A DNA stretch of 64,000 nt from Octopus vulgaris (lineage: Eukaryota), in NCBI GenBank assembly GCA_951406725.2, contig OX597821.1:66774001-66838000 (forward strand), written 5' to 3'. A program made the translations under genes and the position numbers. Below, piece by piece: positions 6,020 to 64,000 of the stretch. Below the pieces are notes generated by a model. It saw nothing but the letters and a program-made list of their open reading frames with translations, ran no database searches and was not told the origin of the DNA. The first letter of the stretch is position 1, and each line of letters opens with the position of its first letter.

Positions 6020-7900
6020 CACTTACTACAACTAAAACCGACAAAGACCTGACAATCAAAGAAGCAGACAAAGGTAGTGCTTCAGTCCTGATGGACACAG
6101 GATACTATAAAAACCTAGCATTGTCCACACTATGAAAAAGTTGCAAATTATAGACAGCAAAAAAGCATTAAAAGATCTTGCATCTTTAATACTCAAACAT
6201 GGAAAAGGCAAGAAAAAGAAAATAACACAAACTTTAAATGCAAGCCAAGCCTTTTCTATGACCACCCACCAAATCCTCAAGAGTCAAATAATTACTAATG
6301 CCTGCAAATCAAATCCAGCTCTATACATAAATATCCCAACACCAGAAGACTTGAAATGAAGGCCGATTATAGCGAGCCCAGCCGGTGAAATACACCGCCT
6401 AAGCAACGTTCTGGATATACTATTGAAACCTTTCCTCAGATACATTAAAAGTTTCATTAGAGATGACCTGAAAATGCCAGAGCATCTACCAAATACCACA
6501 ACTAAGACGCACTATTAGTCTCCTTCGATGTTATCCACCTTTACACTAACATTCCACATGGCTACGGAATAGAGGCAATAAAATTCTGGTTAGAAAAATA
6601 CACCGAACTTATTCCGGACCGACTCAGACTTTTGTCATTGAATCCCTGAAGTTCGTCCTAGAAAACAATTATTTCCTATTCGATGCAACCTACTACCGCC
6701 AAAAATGCGGTATTGCGATTGGAACAAAATCAGTGCTTGTCCTTGCGAACCTAATAATGGGTTTCTTTGAATCTATCCTATATGAACTTTCGCCCCAAAC
6801 ATTAGGATCTCCATTCTACCAGTTTATAAGATAAAACTGGAAGAGGTATCTAAACGATTGTTTTATCATCTGGATAAACTTCTGGATTTCAAATCCACAC
6901 TGAACAATATAAACTCCAAAATTCAATTTACAATGGAATATAGCAAGGAACAGCTCCCATTTCTGGACATTTCGATTATTAAAAAATCTAACATGCAAAT
7001 TGCATCTGACATCTACTACAAACCAACAGACTCAAATCCGTATCTCATTTTCAGCTCATGCCATCCTAAACACACCAGAATACATATCTCAATCAATTCA
7101 GCAAAAAGGATCTGTACAATTTTATCTGACAAAACCACTCGGGAACTTCACCTACAAGACCTCAAAATAACTCTCATAGAACGTCAATACCCAACCGCAC
7201 TTATAGACCATGCAATTACACGTGCCAAGAAATTGGACACAAAGACACTAAGGACAACAAAACAAAACACCACACCTTGGTTTAAATCATTTCCATACAT
7301 ATCAACCCACAACTCCAGAATTAATGAAGCATACAACACAATTATACAAAATCTCCCCCTGGTCACTCAAGACCCGAAAATGTACAACACCCTAAATGCA
7401 CAAATGAAAAAGCAACACAAATCACTAAAGAGACTCCTAACAACTGCAAAACTATATTCAATACATACGATACCAACAGTTAAAAAATACCTACGACCTA
7501 ATTGTGGTACATACCCATACCTAACTGAAGGCTCGGAATTCACATTTCACCAAGGAGAAAAATTCTCAATTAAGACCAACTTCACATGTACTTCCCAGAA
7601 CCTTATCTATGTCCTAACCTGCTCAGGTTGTGGTCACAATTATGTGGGCTAAAGGCGCCTTACTTTGAAATGCAGAGTCACATTGCATAAAGAACAGATT
7701 AGTTCTCTTCAATACAGGCAGATAACCCTCAACGAACATATCGACAGATGCACAAGAAGTAAAACACCGAATTTCCATATCTTTCCATTATACCAATGCA
7801 AAGATTCAATCTCCTTACTAGATCGCCTAAACAAGGAAAACCTGTTCATACAAAAGAACAGACCACACCACACTTTAATATACAAACTTGTCTAACATTA
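6020..7900 (+). mobile_element. Penelope-like element (PLE), 5'-truncated and frameshifted: RT plus GIY-YIG endonuclease
   Basis: IKEADKGSASVLMD, RPIIASPAG, LVSFDVIHLYTNIP, GIAIGTK..LANLIMG, WKRYLNDCF (decayed YxDD), IQFTMEYSKEQLPFLDI, YYKPTD, and NLIYVLTCSGCGHNYVG (GIY-YIG with CxxC). Flanked by (TA)n. Confidence 0.9.
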
Positions 7901-13949: not shown

Positions 13950-14530
13950 AAGGCGACGAGCTGGCAGAAACGTTAGCACGCCGGCCGAAGTGCTTAGCGG
14001 TATTTCGTCTGCCGCTACGTTCTGAGCACAAATTCTGTCGAGGTCGACTTTGCCTTTCATCCTTTCGGGGTCGATTAAATAAGTACCAGTTACGCACTGC
14101 GGTCGATGTAATTGACTTAATCCGTTTGTCTGTCCCTGTTTGTCCTCTCTGTGCTTAACCCATTGTGGGTAGTAAAGAAATAGGGATTTCGTCTGCCGCT
14201 ACGTTCTGAGTTCAAATTCCGCTAAGGTCGACTTTGACTTTCACCCTTTTCCGGTCGATTAAATAAATACTAGTTACGCACTGGGGTCGATGTAATCGAC
14301 TTAATCCGTTTGTCTGTCCTTGTTTGTCCTTTCTGTGTTTAACGCCGTGTGGGTAGTAAAGAAATAGAAATAGCTATTTCGTCTTCCGTTACGTTCTGAT
14401 TTCAAATTCCGCCGAGGTCGACTTTGCCTTTCATCCTTTCGGGGTTGATAAATTAAGTACCAGTGATGTCAATGTAATCGATTAGTCTCCTCCTGCCAAA
14501 ACTTCATGTCTTGTGCCTATAATAGAAAGG
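13950..14530 (+). mobile_element. SINE family B, trimeric (one head plus three ~185-bp body units)
   Basis: Body restarts at 14000, 14184 and 14374. The last unit has an alternative tail (CTTGTGCCTATAATAGAAAGG). Confidence 0.85.
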
Positions 14531-34104: not shown

Positions 34105-34697
34105 AAGGTGGCGAGTTGGTAGAATCATTAGCACGCCGGGCGGAATGCTTTGTGGTATTTCGTCTGCCATTACGTTCTGAGTTCACATTCTGCCGAGGTC
34201 GACTTTGCCTTTCATCCTTTCGAGATCGATTAAATAAGTACCAGTTACGCACTGGGGTCGATATAACCTACTTAATCCGTTTGTCTGTCCTTGTTTGTCC
34301 CCTCTGTGTTTAGCTCCTTGTGGGTAGTAAAGAAATAGGAATTTCGTCTGCCGTTACGTTCTGAGTTAAAATTCCGCCGAGGTCAACTTTGATTTTCATC
34401 CTTTCGGGGTCGATTAAATAAGTACCAGTTACGCACTGGAGTCGATGTAATCGACTTAATCCTTTTGTCTGTCCTGTGTGTGTTTAGCACCTTGTGGGTA
34501 GTAAAGAAATAGGTATTTTGTCTGCCGCTACGTTCTGAGTTCAGATTCCGCTAAGGTCGACTTTGCCTTTCATCCTTTCGGGGTCGATTAAATAAGTACC
34601 AGTTACGCACTGGGGTAGATATAATCGACTTAATCCGTTTGTCTGTCCTTGTTTGTCCCATCTGTGTGTAGCCCCTTGTGGGCAGTAAAGAAATAAG
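34105..34697 (+). mobile_element. SINE family B, trimeric
   Basis: Body units start at 34155, 34339 and 34513; the second and third each follow GTAAAGAAATAG. Confidence 0.88.
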
Positions 34698-35572
34698 AAA
34701 TTTGTTTATTTCAAGCAGGTCCAGACATCATTTAGAAGCTCCTCCTCTTTTTGAGTGAAACACTTGTTATTGAACCTGAAATAACGAAGGTTAAAAACGT
34801 AATACAACAGTGATACGAATTCACATAGACCTAACGTAACGTATTCTTGTAATAGTGAAGATCATGAAATAACAGTTCTGGTGATTCGCTGATTGTAATA
34901 TTATTGCTACAGCTAACATAGATATAGTGTGTGTAGATAGTGTTATAAGGAGAATAATAGAATTATTACTAAATTAAAATTATGATAATAATCTGAAATA
35001 GCACAAACCACAGCAATAAACAAGAAGCGCTCACACGCAGACTGACCTACACGCAATCACATACAAAACAGATATTTACAGGCGCACACACTCAAACATA
35101 CGTCGACGCACAAATAACAGAAGAAAAATGAAAGTAAGAATTTCTGTTTAGTTATATAGGTGTTGCAGGAATATACGTTTATCGGTAGTTCTCCATTGAT
35201 TTTATCTAATTTCCGTTTCTGTAGACACGAAATAAGATTTTCATAAAATCGCCATCTTATTTTATTGCTTTCCATTATTTCAACTGTTTTGCTAGACACT
35301 GGACACGGGAGGGAGAGAAAGAGTGAAATGGGTACAGAGAGAGAGAGAGAGAGAGAGAGTGAAAGAGGGAGAGAGAGAGTGGATGAGATACATTGGTGGT
35401 GGTGGTGGTGGTGGTGGCGGGGTTCTTTTATCACTATTTCAAGCAGAGAGTATTGTGTGTTCTAGATATATCGGACTATTAACTTCGTCCATTCAGTGTA
35501 GAGATGCACTTCATTTTGATTTCATGTATTTCATGATCGCTTTCTGTATTTACACGTACACAAACACTCACT

Positions 35573-50946: not shown

Positions 50947-51362
50947 CCTATTTCTTTATTGTCCACAAGGGGCTAAACATAGAGGGATAAAACAAGGACA
51001 AAGGTATTAAATCGATAACATCGACCCCAGTACGTAACTTGTACTTAATTTATCGACCCCGAAAGGATGGAAGGCAAAGTCGACCTCGGCGGAATTTGAA
51101 CTCAGAACGTAGCGGCAGACGAAATACCTATTTCTTTACTACTCTCAAGGGACTAAACACAGAGAGGACAAACAAGGACAGACATACGGATTAAGTCGAT
51201 TATATCGACCACAGTGCGTAACTGGTACTTATTTAATCGACCCCGAAAGTATGAAAGGCAAAGTCGACCTCGGCGGAATTTGAACTGAGAACGTAGCGGC
51301 AGACGGAATACCACGAAGCATTTCGTCCGGCGTGCTAACGATTCTGCCAGCTCGCCGCCTTC
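50947..51362 (-). mobile_element. SINE family B, dimer
   Basis: Junction GACGAAATAC|CTATTTCT at 51127/51128. Confidence 0.87.
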
Positions 51363-55306: not shown

Positions 55307-56296
55307 CAGGTACAGGAAACATACGATTATACCTTGAATTAAGATAATATCATAATAATATACCACATGTTACTTATATGTATAGCTTTGTATTAAAAAT
55401 TAATAACCGATGGTAGTCAATTTTTTCTTGATCAAGAATTTCTTCGTTTTCTGTTTAATTAAAATTTGACTCCTGATAAACTCTTGTTAATTTTGGTTAT
55501 TGCCTATATCCTATGATCATAATATGCTAGCATATGTATGCCCAGGGTTGACATAGGTAATTTATACCGGTAGTAAAACGGATATCCTTATCCCTTAGAC
55601 GGTTATTCCAACCGCTAACTCTACTAGCCTTTATATTTATATATACATATTTTCTATACGCATATATATATCGTCTTCATATTTTTTCTTCTCCGATTCT
55701 ACTAAATCTGTAACCAAAATATTGTTTTCTAAATAGATGATAAAATTCATTAAGCATCATCTCCTATATTCCAATGAGAATATAATTATGTTGTGCGAGT
55801 CTTAGTTCACATTATTTTCTTTCAAAATAACTTCATTTCGCGATTGTCTTGTTTCTGCGTTTTAATTTTTTTTTCTAAATTTGAAGTAACCCGTTGACCT
55901 TTAATATTGCCAATTAGCTGCGTTGTTAGCCAGCCCGCTAGCAATTAGAGTTATATTTGGTCAGTTCTCCCGAAGAGCTGGTTTATTAAAATGAGATATC
56001 GCTAAAAACGCTATATTACGTAAAACTGTATTAGAAATTAATAGGAAATTTTTCATATATGCTGTTAATTGTGAGTTTGAACTTATGAAACGTGATATAG
56101 AAAAAGATGTTCAAAACTTTCATAGATAACTACAATGTTGGCATAGAAACTAGAAAAGATATTAGATTGGTTAACACTACTTATTGAACACTTACGGCCG
56201 TTTCGAAGTACGAATATTCTGGGCATTCGATGTGCTAAACTACAACTAAATGTGGTAGTTATATTTAATCTCTGAGCGAGAGATAAACAGTAACAG

Positions 56297-56592
56297 TACA
56301 GAATCGTAAAATATATTTGCCAACTAAACGTGGCGGTCCTACAGAGGACAGTGCTAATGTTGTTTTTAGCACCAGGAAGACATCTCCTCCAGCTGGCCAA
56401 CAGCACACAGTCTGTATCCGATTAGTATTTGCGAATGGGAGCGATGACCTCCCTCGCAAATACTAATCGGACACAGACTGTGTGTCGTTGGCCAGCTGGA
56501 GAAGATGACTTCCTGGGGCTAAAAACAAGAGTAGCATCGTTTTCTATGGGGCCGCCACATTTAGTTGGCAAATATATGTTTTACGATAAAAC
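56297..56592. mobile_element. Fold-back (palindromic) MITE-like element with ~135-bp arms and a ~7-nt loop
   Basis: TTTGCCAACTAAA...CCAGCTGGCCAAC..CACAGTCTGT..CCGATTAGTATTTGCGA is mirrored on the other side of ~56445. Confidence 0.75.
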
Positions 56593-59269
56593 TGGTATAT
56601 TATTCCCCTAAACCATTTAATGTGCTATTCGCTATTAGACAAGTTTGAACACTTGAAATTAGAGGATTATCCGGCGGATTACTGTGAAATTTCTGGAGAT
56701 ACATTTTCGCTCACAAATGTTCGAGCCCAACTGAAATATTTACATAAGGTTCCGTGTTGTGGGCAGTGACATCATTCCGGGTGACACTTGTATAGGTGTG
56801 GTAATTTGTGGTCTGCTATATAGGACTGTATAAGCTTACTGGTCAGAGAGGCGGCCAAATGAAGGATTGCCCCGGAGAACATATATTCTAGCTACGTCAC
56901 TGACTCTGGAAAGGAAAGGAATTATTATTGCAAAATGAATATCTTAATTACGGAATTATGCAATGAATAATTACAATATTCATCATCACATATTGACGGA
57001 TTGAGCTATCTTTGATTAAATTATAAACACTTCTAAAGGCATAAAATTGGTTACACCTTATGTTTAAAATAGAGCCAGTTATAAAATACATGTTGCTGAA
57101 TTCGTTGACATCTGACATTGTAGCATAACATTTTAAATAACACCTTACATGGTATACTAACACACAGCTTTTAAATGTCTAATGAATATTTTCAGACAAC
57201 AAACAACATACGACTCCACCACATTTTGGATAAGACAATCCTTCAACAGAACTGTCTTTTAGAGAAACTTGTACCAATATTCCAGGTCTGGAATAGTGGA
57301 AGTTTTACACTAATAAAATTACAAATAATAGGATCTCGCTAACTAACGTCATTTCATTTATTATTATCTCATTTGCAATTTTCACTACTGTATTAAACAC
57401 GCTATCAAACTTAATGACTTTAAGACACTTATACAGTTGCTACCAAAATTTATTATGAAAAATAGTATTGAGACATACCAAGACTTATCATGAAAAATAT
57501 TGACCAGTTAAATGCAATTATATTAAATTTAAATATAGTCAAAATTCCACAAATTTTAAGGACGGTACTGTCTTTTGTGTTATCCTCGGTAACTGCTGAG
57601 GTTTATATAGTCGATAGAGGGAAGTAAATCAAAGTTAAATTCGGCGTGATTAGAATTAATAACATAAAGGAATGTATGGTAATGCATCCGATGTTCCAAC
57701 CATTCTGTAATCTACCGCCTTTTTAACCGAAACGGTATCATGATCAAACACCTTTAACGAATGTCGATTCATATGTCGTGTTTTATGAGATTTGTCTAAT
57801 GTGTCCAGTCCAGAACTGGACTTTAACTGGTCAAAGATATTACATTGGCTTTTAACTTGCTCTTTGAAATTATTAAGGGGAAAATTACTGTTGGAGAGAA
57901 ATCAGTAATTTTGATGCTGAGCTACAAAATCAAACTAGAAATTTTAATGTATGGTATATACCACTAAATATGGAAATGATTCTGTCATTTTACAAATCAA
58001 TCTTCTGCAGACAAAATTTGATTATTTTCTCTATCTATAGACTAGCAGACATTCATTATTTGAATAGCTTGGATTATAGTCGGACTATGAACAACTATAA
58101 CTTTCCAAAGAAGAGTCCTTTCAATGTCATCGCATCTATTCTACTCAGTAAGAGTAATAAATACATATGGTGTGAATCTTTGAATTCCAGAAGATAACGG
58201 TGATATTGATTCCTATTATTAGATAGAATATGATAGAATATAAAAATATCTGCAATACATAATAGAAAAAAGACAAATGAACACTTTGGCGCATAACTAA
58301 CCATAACTTGTCGCTACTAACCACAAATCAACCATTTAAGAGTTGTCAAACGCATTCTGATAATACTATCATAGAAACAATTCATTGCACAAATAAAAGA
58401 ATTGGAGCTGCCATCACGTAATCAAGCTATCTCCCATGTCACTTCCCTCTGAAGAAAGTATTGGAATTACAGAAGCAGCTGCAAGTGTCTGAGTAGTAAT
58501 CATAGCAGAATTAGTTTCAGAAGTACTCGCCAAATTTCTTAGACAAATGACGAATCAATTTTGACCACTGATACTGATCAGCCATTTGGGATGTGTTCAC
58601 AATGGCTAACTGTATTTTTGGAAAATAAAATAAATAACAAGTTTGCGTCGGCTTTACAGAAGTATAAAAGAAGAAAACATACTTAGATAATGAAACAAGA
58701 TGAACGAGAAAGGAAGAAAAACATTTTTTTTTTCTGAATTAGGAAGATAAAGTTTGTGATGAAATTTTGTTTTAGAGCATTTTCTCGCATCATTTGAAAA
58801 ATCGTTTTCATAGCAAATCGCTGCAAGTCTCTGTTCTGTTAAATAATTACAGCAGCTCTCCCTTAAACAGAACGATAATTAAGATTACTCATCTAAATAT
58901 GATAAACACAAAATCGTCGTAAACTCAGGAGAAAGGAATATATGATCCCAAACCGTAATATAACAGAAATAACAACTATCAACGAAACACCTTATTAATT
59001 GATTTGTACTCTGTTCTTGGAGAATATAAATAAGGTGGTGAAAGGATGCATACATCCTAAACATTAGTTGTCATCCACAGAAGGTGGTGAAATACCAAAG
59101 TCGTCAGAACGTCGGATATAATTTCTTATATTCTCACTTTCAGGTCAAATGCCGCAGAGGTCAGCTTTGCCAGCCATACTTTCAGTGCCAATATGTAATG
59201 CACAAGTCAAGAGCTGAAATCTATTCTTTTTATTTATCTTCGAAAAAATAAGTTGCTCTCAGACCTGGA

Positions 59270-59530
59270 AAGAGATGGGCTCTGCGAGGCTTAACATACA
59301 CAAAACATGACATATTGAGAAATGCGCAAAGCAACTACTGCCACAATTTATAATTTTTCCATTCTATCAATGTGCCATTGGAACACCAGCACAAATTAGA
59401 TTAAATAAGGAAACCATCTTCATTGAAAAATATAAGCCAAAACTTAACCACTTCTAACATTTTTAAATAAGGAAACTCACCTCATTGAATATGAAATATA
59501 AAGCAAAATCTAACAACTTGTAACATTCTA
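59270..59530 (+). pseudogene. PLE GIY-YIG C-terminal fragment with a ~63-bp tandem duplication of the ORF end
   Basis: HIEKCAKQLLPQFIIF/FYQCAIGTPAQIRLNKETIFIEKYKPKLN* aligns by eye with HIDRCTRSKTPNFHIFPLYQCKDSISLLDRLNKENLFIQKNRP of ORF 7665-7895. Confidence 0.72.
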
Positions 59531-59844
59531 TTCCTTCTAAACCAAATCATGTTTAATTAATCAAGCCTAGTCATTCCCAACATGTTTGATTATCTCCCTT
59601 ATACCGGAAAAAATCCCTGATTACCTTCCCCTGCCTGGAACTCCATATTTCACAACATAGCGAAGACATGACACGATATAGGTAAAGAAATCTGAGAAAT
59701 TTGAAAAGAAAATACGAAACTGGTTATTTCTCCAAAATCTATGTTTCTATACGCAAAATTACCTAACATTTTTCTAACATAACGATTTAAATATATTCTT
59801 TAACCACATAACACAAATCTTCTGTAGTTTTATTCACTCTTTTT

Positions 59845-59892
<48 letters not shown>

Positions 59893-60012
59893 ACAATCAA
59901 GGAACGGCCATAATAGGCCATTCACCCACTAGAAATAACAGCCAAAGCTTCAACCGCAAATAAAAGTTAATTCTGTAAACCAGGAGAAAATTTAAAAAAC
60001 ATTTACCCTGTA

Positions 60013-60119
60013 ATTTCTTATACGATATACCGTTTCATCTGCTGATTAATGGTAAACTAACCTGATTAAATTAAATCAAGCCAATCTTCCACAGGCCCTC
60101 AGATTCATCAGTAAGAAAT
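60013..60119 (-). ncRNA. Type I hammerhead ribozyme (copy 1)
   Basis: Reverse complement of copy 2: ATTTCTTA-CTGATGA-ATCTG...CAGAT-GAAA-CGGTATATCG-TA-TAAGAAAT. Confidence 0.85.
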
Positions 60120-60869
60120 AGCCCAAGTCGGAACAGATATTTTCACGAGGCATTTCCGACTTTGCCAAGTTTATATCTGACCTAAAATTTTCAAATCGTC
60201 GCACTCGCGCCAAATTTATCGGCAGCAAATAAATATAAGCCGTCGATTCCATTACGGAATTAACCAGAAAATTCATAATTAATCAATATAGGGTGGCAAA
60301 AAAAAATTTTGTAGAATTCTTTTGCCACCAGCGGCCTAGTAGGAAAAAATTAAATAGTCATAGACCATTTTTAAGTTTAACATCAACAATCAAGGAACGG
60401 CTATAATAGGCCATTCACCCACTAGAAATAACAGCCAAAGCTTCAACCGCAAATAAAAGTTAATTCTGTAAACCAGGAGAAAATTTAAAAAACATTTACC
60501 CTGTAAATTTTCTCCTGGTTTACAGAATTAACTTTTATTTGCGGTTGAAGCTTTGGCTGTTATTTCTAGTGGGTGAATGGCCTATTATGGCCGTTCCTTG
60601 ATTGTTGATGTTAAACTTAAAAATGGTCTATGACTATTTAATTTTTTCCTACTAGGCCGCTGGTGGCAAAAGAATTCTACAAAATTTTTTTTGCCACCCT
60701 ATATTGATTAATTATGAATTTTCTGGTTAATTCCGTAATGGAATCGACGGCTTATATTTATTTGCTGCCATAAATTTGGCGCGAGTGCGACGATTTGAAA
60801 ATTTTAGGTCAGATATAAACTTGGCAAGGTCGGAAATGCCTCATGAAAATATCTGTTCCGACTTGGGCT

Positions 60870-60975
60870 ATTTCTTACTGATGAATCTGAATTTGCTGTA
60901 AGATTGGCTTGATTTAATTTAATCAGGTTAGTTTACCATTAATCAGCAGATGAAACGGTATATCGTATAAGAAAT
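60870..60975 (+). ncRNA. Type I hammerhead ribozyme (copy 2); predicted cleavage after GUA at 60967
   Basis: Stem I ATTTCTTA (60870-77) with TAAGAAAT (60968-75), 8 bp perfect. CTGATGA at 60878-84. Stem II ATCTG (60885-89) with CAGAT (60947-51). GAAA at 60952-55. Stem III CGG-TATA-TCG. U16.1-A17. Confidence 0.87.
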
Positions 60976-61194
60976 TACAGGGTAAATGTTTTTTAAATTT
61001 TCTCCTGGTTTACAGAATTAACTTTTATTTGCAGTTGAAGCTTTGGCTGTTATTTCTAGTGGGTGAATATATTATGGCCGTTCCTTGATTGTTGATGTTA
61101 AACTTAAAAATGGTCTGTGACTATTTAATTTTTTCCTACTAGGCCGCTGGTGGCAAAAGAATTCTACAAAATTTTTTTTGCCACCCTATATTGA

Positions 61195-61239
<45 letters not shown>

Positions 61240-61509
61240 CATACATACATACATACATACATACAATATACAACGTATACATACATATATATGTATATAT
61301 GTGTGCGTGTGTGTGTCACTATATACATGTGTATGTATATGTATATATTTACATATGTTGATAAACACACACACACACACACGCACACGCATGATTTGCT
61401 CTAATTTCACATAAGCATAATAATTGAAATTTTCCGTAATTGCACGCAATTACCCCGATTTCGCCGGCAAGATTTAGAAAATCTTTACTTTGATATAAAG
61501 AAAATAGGT

Positions 61510-61850
61510 CGGATTGCGGTCGAGTTTGTCATATATCATTTCGGGGTCGATAACTTAAGTACCAGTTGCGTACTGAAGTCAATCTAATCGATTGGCCCCT
61601 TCCCCAAAATTTCGGGCCTTCAGCCTAGAGTAGAAAAGAAATCAAAGCACGCTGAGCTAAATGTTTAACGACATTTTGTCCATCTTTACAATCTGAGCTC
61701 AAACTCCAACGTGGTCGAGTTTGCTTTTCATCCTTTCGAGATCTATAAAATAAATACCAATTTATAAGTACCAATTGAACACTGTGGTCGACTTAATCCT
61801 CTTACCCCCTCTTCCAAAACTGCTTTCATACGCCAAGATTTGAAAGCAAT
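61510..61850 (+). mobile_element. Two diverged SINE B fragments
   Basis: TTTCGGGGTCGATAACTTAAGTACCAG core, and tails CCCCAAAATTTCGGGCCTT..TAGAGTAGAAAAG. Confidence 0.68.
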
Positions 61851-62821
61851 ACGTTAGCTTTCAGTTCTTCTCGCTCTTTTGTTTAATTTGGGTTTCACCT
61901 CTACTTTGGGTGCTAGATAAATATTTCATATGACGGTGTGTGTAAAATACCCGCTACATATCTATTTTATTTAAAATAATGATATTTTGGGTAAATTAGC
62001 AGCATAAACAAATTAAATTAAATCTGCTGTGAATAATGTTAAATATTTTCATTTATACTGTAAATGCATATTTTTGGAGAACCAAGTTACAGAACCACCG
62101 TCATTATTGTAAAATTCAAGGACTTAATTCTGCGTTTAACAATTCTACATGTCAGTCAAAATACGACAAAACGTATCGAATATCCTCGCAACTGGATCAA
62201 CAATTTTGAAATTGTGTGGTACAAATAAATCCCAGTGGTAATCAGAATATGCTTCTTTTAACTGAACATTAACAGGTTATGCGATAAACTCGAATTCGCA
62301 GCAAACTATCCAAGCTCATTCTTCTGCAGAAAAATATTGGATTTAGAACTACATTTAGGAAGAATTGCAACATGTCGTGCAAGCAATTGTAGAGTCGATC
62401 ATTTAGTAGAAGTTATTAACAAGGAATTCCTTTATCAGCAATTGAAGCTGATTTTCTATTAAATAAAATGAGGGAACAGCTCGGCTCATTTAAAAATGTT
62501 ATTATTCCATCTTTACTAAAAGAACAAATTATAACAGATGTAACAGTACGTCTTCTCTGAATTTGGATGCGTATTCTCCTCTTTCTGTTCGATAATGCAA
62601 TAAAGTACAAAATAAATTTGTGTATCAAGATGTTTAGTATTAATATTGCATTTGGACATGAAGCAGGTTTTGAGTGGTGTGAGGTTTTAGAAATAAAAAG
62701 GAAAACTGACTTGTTATTGCAAGGCTCAGAACTTCAAAACATTCGTGACGTTAACAATTTTCTTCACAAATGAGTAAAATTAAATAATCCAAACTTGATT
62801 CTCTAAAACGTTATTGCTGCT

Positions 62822-62891
<70 letters not shown>

Positions 62892-63752
62892 AATCTATCT
62901 ATCTATCTTTCTTTCTATCTATCTAGCATACTTCCTTGCTACGGAATAATTATCTTTCAACACTGAATATCTGCTAAAAGAATCAAGTAACTGGTTTCAC
63001 TGATCAATGCAGCGGTTAGAATCATACATTAACGTACAATAATTTCAATCAATCAATCAACGAGGAAGAAGTTCTGCTGAAAATTATTCCCTTTTCAATC
63101 GTAAGATTGTTAGAGGGAAGCAACAATGTATAAAGAATACTTAGCAATTGGGACACATTAAAACCGCATTTGCGAATGGCATCTTCTTGTTTTGGCAAGA
63201 ATCATGCAAGTGAATAACTATATGCATTGCTCTCTGACGAAACTAATGAACATTATTTAACATTTATGAGGAATGTGTTAAAATAATTTGAAAACAAAAA
63301 ATTAATTTACCGCCCCAAAACTGAAATGATGGAATACTCTAGTATCTTAAAAGTATTCTATGGCTTTAACACAGAAGTTTATAAGGATTAGACATCTCTG
63401 ATAAACAAATTCTTAAAATCTATTTACAGATCGAATCTCTATAGTTCCTACGCACGAAGAACGATAAACAGAGAGACCGATATCAGTTACGAGTTTTCTA
63501 ACCTATGGCTCAGTAAAGTTTTATCGAAATAAAATTCACAAGATCAAGTATGTATATATATATATATATATATATACGTTTATATATTTGTTGTGCAAGA
63601 TTATTTTGTGACAAAAGAACTCTGGCCGAAATTAATGTAAAAAATAAATAACACTGAAGCAAAATAACACCCAAATATATAGTGCGTGTGTTTTTATTGG
63701 CTAAACTGGCAAAATGACCATTCCTAAATATAACAATATATATATATATATA

Positions 63753-64000
63753 TATTATTTTTATTTTTTATTTTATTTAGTTTCAGCTCACAAGCTGTGG
63801 CCATGCTGGGGCACCGCCATTTGGTGTTGCTACATGATTTTACTTCACGAATGCTTTTTAGCAAATGCCATCTAGTGCATGAGAGAGTTCGATGCAGCTG
63901 CCTTCATCTGCACCTCCTGCCGTGAAGTTGGTTCATCTGGGATACCTGACAAGAAGAGATCCAGTTTCATTTTAAAGACATCTATATCTACCCCATGCAG
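63753..64000 (-). mobile_element. 3' end of a second CR1-group LINE related to 1-1216; continues beyond the window
   Basis: Minus-strand LHGVDIDVFKMKLDLFLSGIPDEPTSRQEVQMKAAASNSLMH* versus LHGVDVGFFKTKLDLFLLGVPDEPTSRQETQMRVAASNSLVDQ. It has the same GGCGGTGCCCCAGCATGGCC UTR motif and an A-rich tail into (TA)n. Confidence 0.9.

Follow-up and report, generated by a model that had tools for sequence, protein, structure and literature searches.

The closest described parallels to the locus analyzed here are metazoan non-LTR retrozymes and Penelope-like elements (PLEs). Metazoan retrozymes are non-coding, low-GC units in dispersed tandem arrays, each unit carrying one type I hammerhead ribozyme, and those hammerheads that act as dimers have a palindromic stem III (PMC7229834). 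Their RNAs measure 170-400 nt (Cervera and de la Pena 2020, PMC7229834) and their units 51-972 bp (Li, Clavereau and Pollet 2026, 10.64898/2026.07.22.740005). Mobilisation of retrozymes by PLEs has already been proposed (PMC7229834; 10.64898/2026.07.22.740005). The words 'inverted', 'orientation' and 'microsatellite' are absent from the main text of PMC7229834, and the accessible text of Li et al. (10.64898/2026.07.22.740005) describes no end structure.

EN+ PLEs (Penelope/Poseidon, Neptune and Naiad) have an RT-GIY-YIG frame and a published insertion signature, in which a 5'-truncated copy stands in inverted orientation, one end alone carries a tail of 30-40 bp and (TA)n targets are favoured (PMC8557442, PMC3846280). 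The purified protein of an anole PLE cleaves and extends both strands, and it begins reverse transcription at a pair of internal sites between which the tail lies (PMC11167929). Non-autonomous PLEs of the MRC1 type in Chlamys are non-coding PLE dependants in multicopy head-to-tail insertions; they have 3' similarity to a known autonomous family and belong to a clade without canonical hammerheads (PMC8557442).

The insertion described here, found in a 64-kb stretch of DNA that was analyzed as a whole (the window), shares features with each of these systems. Like retrozymes, it is made of non-coding, low-GC tandem units that bear one type I hammerhead each, occur in dispersed arrays and have a palindromic stem III. 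It differs from them in a 57-nt insert in stem II and in its head-to-head arrays with two fixed ends inside (TA)n; its unit of 490 nt compares with the RNA and unit lengths given above. With EN+ PLEs it has in common the head-to-head inverted 5'-truncated copy, the tail at one end, the AT-rich or (TA)n target and a hammerhead about 100 nt upstream of the (here putative) RT start sites, whereas its tail measures 106 nt instead of 30-40 and the whole element is the repeat, in place of a coding frame. Like the Chlamys elements, it is non-coding, forms multicopy head-to-tail units and is likely to depend on a PLE; unlike them, it has a full hammerhead, and a partner was not found among 50 GIY-YIG loci. 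On its testable features it qualifies as a metazoan non-LTR retrozyme, and neither as an autonomous PLE nor as a pseudo-LTR (pLTR) remnant. The class and the proposed PLE link are already published; the fixed A/B ends with a 106-nt tail, the arms of one haplotype and the apparent selection on the ribozyme core are not described in the literature covered. Neither inverted or tailed retrozyme insertions nor this family are described in the literature covered, a coverage outside which subscription papers, Repbase, Dfam and supplements largely fall.

Anatomy of the locus and its family

The locus (L070) consists of a non-coding unit of about 490 bp (unit periods 487-493) in two head-to-head arms inside (TA)n. 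The left arm (59890-60510, 621 nt) comprises 1.26 units with the ribozyme on the minus strand, and the right arm (60504-61202, 699 nt) 1.42 units with the ribozyme on the plus strand. The arms join 5' to 5', overlap by 6 nt and show 9 differences across 481 nt. According to a motif scan, the whole window contains exactly two hammerheads, one per arm. The features are the following.

59310..59845, plus strand: older repeat of about 535 bp, derived from the 3'-terminal part of a PLE (last portion of the GIY-YIG frame, with its C-terminus, and 3' UTR)
59850..59890, no strand: left (TA)n target tract
59889..60510, minus strand: left arm of 1.26 units, running from an outer end at site A to an inner end 5 nt past the ribozyme cut
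59889..59898, minus strand: end site A, a fixed outer end and putative RT start (412 exact A-end+(TA) junctions genome-wide)
60013..60119, minus strand: left-arm type I hammerhead; predicted cut between 60021 and 60020
60504..60510, no strand: head-to-head junction on a short palindromic microhomology
60504..61202, plus strand: right arm of 1.42 units, with its outer end at site B
60870..60975, plus strand: right-arm type I hammerhead; predicted cut after 60967
60870-60877/60968-60975, plus strand: right-arm ribozyme, stem I
60878-60884, plus strand: right-arm ribozyme, CUGAUGA
60885-60889/60947-60951, plus strand: right-arm ribozyme, stem II with the 57-nt hairpin insert
60952-60955, plus strand: right-arm ribozyme, GAAA
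60956-60965, plus strand: right-arm ribozyme, self-complementary stem III
61042..61058 and 60552-60568, plus strand, 59930-59946 and 60423-60439, minus strand: 17-nt motif
61097..61202, plus strand: segment ending at outer end B
61193..61202, plus strand: end site B, a fixed outer end and putative RT start (816 exact B-end+(TA) junctions genome-wide)
61200..61300, no strand: right (TA)n, then (TACA)n tract

A preliminary description of this DNA had recognized an inverted unit of about 490 bp with more than one copy per arm within (TA)n, one full-core type I hammerhead with an 8-bp stem I in each arm and a single ribozyme per strand, all of which is borne out, and the hairpins it named lie where it placed them. 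It had taken the outer ends for mere permutations of the unit; they are instead two fixed, family-wide sites, and the A/B rule set out below had been overlooked. With one ribozyme per strand, this locus by itself falls outside what Li et al. call 'active'. Among the contigs listed from eight independent runs, none spans its head-to-head junction.

On the left, the insertion adjoins the older PLE-derived repeat, of which positions 59311-59448 match a PLE protein at 35% over 46 aa (tblastn, E 9e-4). This repeat, which is not homologous to the ~490-bp unit, occurs at 39 other scored loci (2141 candidates) with 88-95% identity, and its (TA)n tract was the insertion target of the retrozyme. Most of the 40 scored copies have the same start position, which hints at a fixed-length non-autonomous family. 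Elsewhere in the window, a degenerate Penelope-like RT and GIY-YIG remnant with stops and frameshifts is found at 6055-7865 (plus strand), about 50% identical to an intact 781-aa PLE family, and short tandem arrays of a 174-184-bp SINE-like repeat lie at 14002-14464, 34157-34699 and 50947-51312.

The 2.8-Gb animal assembly containing the window was searched for related insertions. A 29-nt ribozyme pattern has 805 exact copies, against 0 in a reversed control, and exact junctions of a unit end with (TA)n number 412 for the A end and 816 for the B end. The surplus of B-end matches is largely due to a sister subfamily, about 90% identical, which makes up 15 of the 20 loci chosen by their B end. 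The sample comprised ninety loci, roughly one insertion in ten, each taken with 3-7 kb of flanking sequence: the 40 best DNA matches, 30 loci drawn from the first 100 matches to the ribozyme pattern, and 20 B-end loci absent from the other lists; the end rule was established on the 70 loci preceding the B-end-picked 20. The unit is non-coding (longest ATG frame 66 codons) and has a GC content of 34.9%, below the 45-50% limit for retrozymes. The 70 loci contain 104 cut-to-cut monomers in arms of up to 9.4 units (L153), and an LTR-internal-LTR layout occurs in none of the 90. The earlier proposal of a type I hammerhead retroelement that is young and non-autonomous is confirmed; the element forms tandem arrays and is present in at least several hundred copies in two subfamilies. 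Contigs of two runs labelled as other organisms also contain the unit, X6 (organism B) over 470 nt with 6 differences and X16 (organism C) over 438 nt with 17, so the family would seem, judging from these contigs, not to be limited to one organism label.

Structure and conservation of the ribozyme

Both hammerheads are composed of an 8-bp stem I, CUGAUGA, a 5-bp stem II that encloses a hairpin insert of 57-58 nt, GAAA, stem III and a GUA cut triplet. The hammerhead regions fold better than shuffled sequences (z -3.6 and -3.3), and the monomer of another copy, folded as a circle, reaches z -4.4. Rfam models had been named beforehand as a check on the motif; Hammerhead_1 does not detect it at E<=1, a cmscan of 56000-64000 returning no hammerhead at that threshold and only microsatellite or hairpin miRNA matches, all under gathering scores. 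Likewise, none of the best 30 of 59 genome matches to RF00163 (Hammerhead_1) is this ribozyme. The stem II insert is the likely cause of the miss. In the accessible text of both retrozyme studies, a Hammerhead_1 match is not a defining feature of the class (PMC7229834; 10.64898/2026.07.22.740005).

All conserved core bases are kept in 213 of 217 ribozyme copies, a count of units found by motif rather than of independent insertions, from a search that skips badly decayed ribozymes. Position 7, which is unconstrained in hammerheads, is A in 103 copies, U in 72, G in 23 and C in 15. Between the subfamilies, one stem II pair has changed from G-C to A-U on both sides and the stem III palindrome from UAUA to UGCA with its self-complementarity kept, each of these two compensatory changes representing one event; the cut triplet may likewise vary between GUA and GUC. 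When compared with 500 shuffles, the number of pairs does not exceed the control (380/500), whereas the percentage paired and the covariation score do (0/500). Stem III is predicted to form a self-duplex of -13.6/-17.5 kcal/mol, against -0.2 for the hairpin, in keeping with dimer-acting hammerheads of retrozymes (PMC7229834). Judging from this pattern of conservation, the ribozyme appears to be under selection for catalysis. Ribozyme cleavage by the anole PLE was dispensable in vitro (PMC11167929), and in the accessible text of Li et al. eight of nine predicted Xenopus retrozymes failed to cleave (10.64898/2026.07.22.740005).

End sites, template and origin of the second arm

Outer ends fall at two sites, A and B, which lie 106 nt apart. 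Neither coincides with the ribozyme cut, and each consists of a UUGAUU..AU motif behind a hairpin. Among the 70 loci, 51 are two-armed with both ends classified, namely 48 A/B, 2 A/A and 1 B/B; three have one unclassified end and 16 are one-armed, some of which carry a small piece of the opposite end. The excess of A/B over independent choice of ends is highly significant (P 1e-11). In the subset picked by the ribozyme pattern (37 loci), 26 of the 27 classified loci are A/B, and in loci picked by their B end the opposite arm ends at A in 12 of 20 cases and at B in none. A tail of 106 nt is present at one end only in 48 of the 51 two-armed loci. All 30 inverted loci among the first 40 are head to head, and both arms exceed one unit in 18 of 47. 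The target is equally uniform, with (TA)n on both sides at 61 of 70 loci and on at least one side at all 70. The B/B insertion L042:3590-4560 has a palindrome reaching into its flanks, and represents either a genuine duplication or an assembly fold-back.

From the layout of PLE insertions and the in vitro data on the anole enzyme, we infer that A and B are two RT start sites. Our main reading, to which we assign a probability of about 75%, is that the locus is a young insertion of a non-coding retrozyme made by a borrowed PLE RT/endonuclease, which would have nicked both strands of (TA)n and reverse transcribed from A and B of one RNA. It is the insertion signature that points to a PLE RT.

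The arms of one locus differ by 0.37 per 100 nt, compared with 2.79 to the arms of other loci, and the own arm is closer than the mean in 51 of 52 two-armed loci (those sharing at least 100 nt, with L042 left out). Subfamilies are mixed in none of 48 typed loci. Monomer pairs differ by 1.1 substitutions within an arm, by a median of 0 between opposite arms and by 6.4 between loci, a similarity within insertions which argues that the arrays were made at insertion from one haplotype and not by later amplification. The shared haplotype points to a single RNA as the likely origin of both arms; one circle, a homogeneous multimer, a pair of RNAs from the same source array and fold-back would each produce such a pattern. 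Crossing of the cut site is exact in 236 of 242 copies. Ligated circles and uncut multimers agree with this, and jumping of the RT between cut ends as template is disfavoured. We put slightly better than even odds on a circular template and regard linear multimers as the lesser, though serious, possibility.

Inner ends show some preference for the vicinity of the cut and of site A. Over all 70 loci, A arms end within 30 nt past the cut in 15 of 62 cases (expected 4.2), in a window set after the first locus set had been seen. With the window fixed beforehand, 6 of 25 subfamily-2 inner ends lie just past the cut (expected 1.7, P 0.005), and in the pattern-picked subset the counts are not significant (A arms 5/33, P 0.07; B arms 1/30). 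B arms stop just before site A in 10 of 58 cases (expected 4.0, P 0.006), and the subset gives 5 of 30 (P 0.05); two primers located on the same RNA would be expected to have this effect.

The alternative that survives best retains a PLE-mobilised retrozyme and differs in how the second arm arises: a single cDNA primed at B would snap back on a hairpin and copy itself, and the endonuclease would resolve the product at A. Ideas of self-priming and EN-resolution close to this one appear in the accessible text of PMC3846280 and PMC8557442. Such a fold-back explains the shared haplotype directly. Near-perfect full-length palindromes are in excess among the A/B loci (9 of 47, expected 2.1, P 1e-4; the 47-locus counts omit L158, whose chain is interrupted by a deletion), the B arm exceeds the A arm in length in 33 of 47, and inner ends lie at most 35 nt apart on the unit in 16 of 48 (expected 6.9). 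However, most junctions connect distant unit positions, and 7 of 47 loci, the present one among them with a margin of 29 nt, have arms that could not lie wholly within each other either way round. Even so, these loci that exclude copying are fewer than the 11.8 predicted by independence (P 0.05). Against fold-back also stands the UUGAUU..AU motif after a hairpin that A and B share, as two start sites would, and a PLE has been seen in vitro to use two RT start sites and to extend both strands (PMC11167929). The palindrome excess and the small number of excluding loci suggest that fold-back may account for part of the loci; as the source of the second arm in place of priming at A and B, we consider it unlikely.

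Candidate enzyme and proposed cycle

An autonomous partner was sought in 50 GIY-YIG loci, taken from 150 scored among 6136 candidates, and none of them resembles the unit convincingly. An ORF with RT and GIY-YIG between pLTRs occurs in 0 of 90 unit loci. A relaxed hammerhead pattern gave 75 matches, against 17 in a reversed control, and 30 loci were examined; taken together, the GIY-YIG, relaxed hammerhead and RF00163 searches returned PLEs and further hammerhead repeat families, but among the loci examined no coding element related to the unit. The genome does contain intact (TA)n-targeting PLEs with an optional tail of their own. A young family with a 781-codon RT and GIY-YIG frame (L101-L113, e.g. 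L101:2745-5087) has many intact frames, lies in (TA)n and shows two alternative 3' ends about 40 nt apart, equivalent to an optional tail; no canonical hammerhead was found in this abundant 781-aa family.

At least three further hammerhead repeat families reside in (TA)n (L121, L130 and relatives; L190; L237-L259). The 17-nt motif downstream of the cut site is common to the unit and two other hammerhead families and is a candidate RT-binding site. L190, with a 564-nt period, ends in TTGTTGAT, as does site A. Two apparent chimeras, a 57-bp A-end piece beside a PLE fragment (L073) and a PLE fragment beside a ribozyme of the second family (L130), are pieces that inserted independently of each other into adjacent (TA)n tracts.

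Work on newt satellite 2 reportedly offers a lead for the idea of an snRNA-type promoter. The 17-nt motif is missing around 30 of 30 U1/U2 genes at up to 4 mismatches, and a U1/U2 upstream matrix scores no better on the unit than on shuffled sequence, but this matrix does not carry over between U1 and U2 either. Two of 15 U2 genes (L266 and L273) share an upstream sequence without the ATCAGT element, which the remaining 28 U1/U2 genes have at a distance of 57-61 nt; this shared sequence is possibly the end of a U2-targeting retroelement.

These searches also bear on the possibility that the unit is the pLTR of a coding PLE and the loci its 5'-truncated remnants, as the preliminary description had allowed should the unit occur only at the termini of coding PLEs. 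Hammerhead, tail and inverted ends are pLTR features (PMC8557442, accessible text), and animal retrozymes are related to pLTRs (10.64898/2026.07.22.740005, accessible text). Yet arms pass through as many as 9.4 perfect unit repeats (L153) uninterrupted by any ORF, in none of the 90 loci, roughly one insertion in ten, does the unit terminate a PLE frame, and in the six loci with a PLE protein match this match lies at least 650 bp away, so that this explanation is very improbable. The weakest of all, an assembly or library fold-back artefact or else a satellite or MITE amplified at the DNA level with a vestigial ribozyme, can be practically dismissed: although the L042 palindrome extends into its flanks and the junction of the present locus is without confirmation by independent contigs, the flanks are unique, the junction is different at each locus, ends A and B are unequal and the arms here show 9 differences per 481 nt, while a MITE, other DNA transposon or satellite is further contradicted by the variable interior, the lack of identical terminal inverted repeats, opposite-arm units as alike as same-arm units and a conservation pattern that follows RNA catalysis. 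The inversion, earlier suspected as a possible fold-back of the assembly, recurs across dozens of loci with different junctions and two fixed ends and is therefore no such artefact.

Under our main reading, a PLE-mobilised retrozyme primed at two sites, we infer transcription, cleavage, circles and the enzyme from the insertions themselves, and the cycle would run as follows. Arrays would be transcribed, and hammerheads, probably paired as dimers via the self-complementary stem III, would cut the transcript into monomers of about 490 nt, which may be ligated to circles. The enzyme would then prime from one nicked target strand at B and from the other strand at A. Each cDNA would cross several unit boundaries, following either a circle or a multimer that is cut in part. 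Microhomology would then link the 3' ends of both cDNAs, so that the arrays come to lie head to head and the 106-nt tail is found on one side. A more specific version, which we hold tentatively and rate somewhat below even, is that one PLE dimer primes both (TA)n strands on a single ribozyme-made circle at two fixed internal sites and rolls round it in each of the two reactions, with cleavage under selection and setting the stops of the cDNAs.

The literature leaves open which enzyme moves animal retrozymes and how PLEs make inverted, tailed insertions. The retrozyme class and its proposed PLE link being already published, the surprise is limited; this family links both questions at the level of single insertions. 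It supplies hundreds of natural insertions for testing twin priming against fold-back and circle against multimer, and a 490-nt RNA with two mapped candidate start sites that is usable in in vitro PLE assays. If the more specific version is true, these hundreds of fresh insertions would constitute an in vivo record of a two-strand PLE mechanism.
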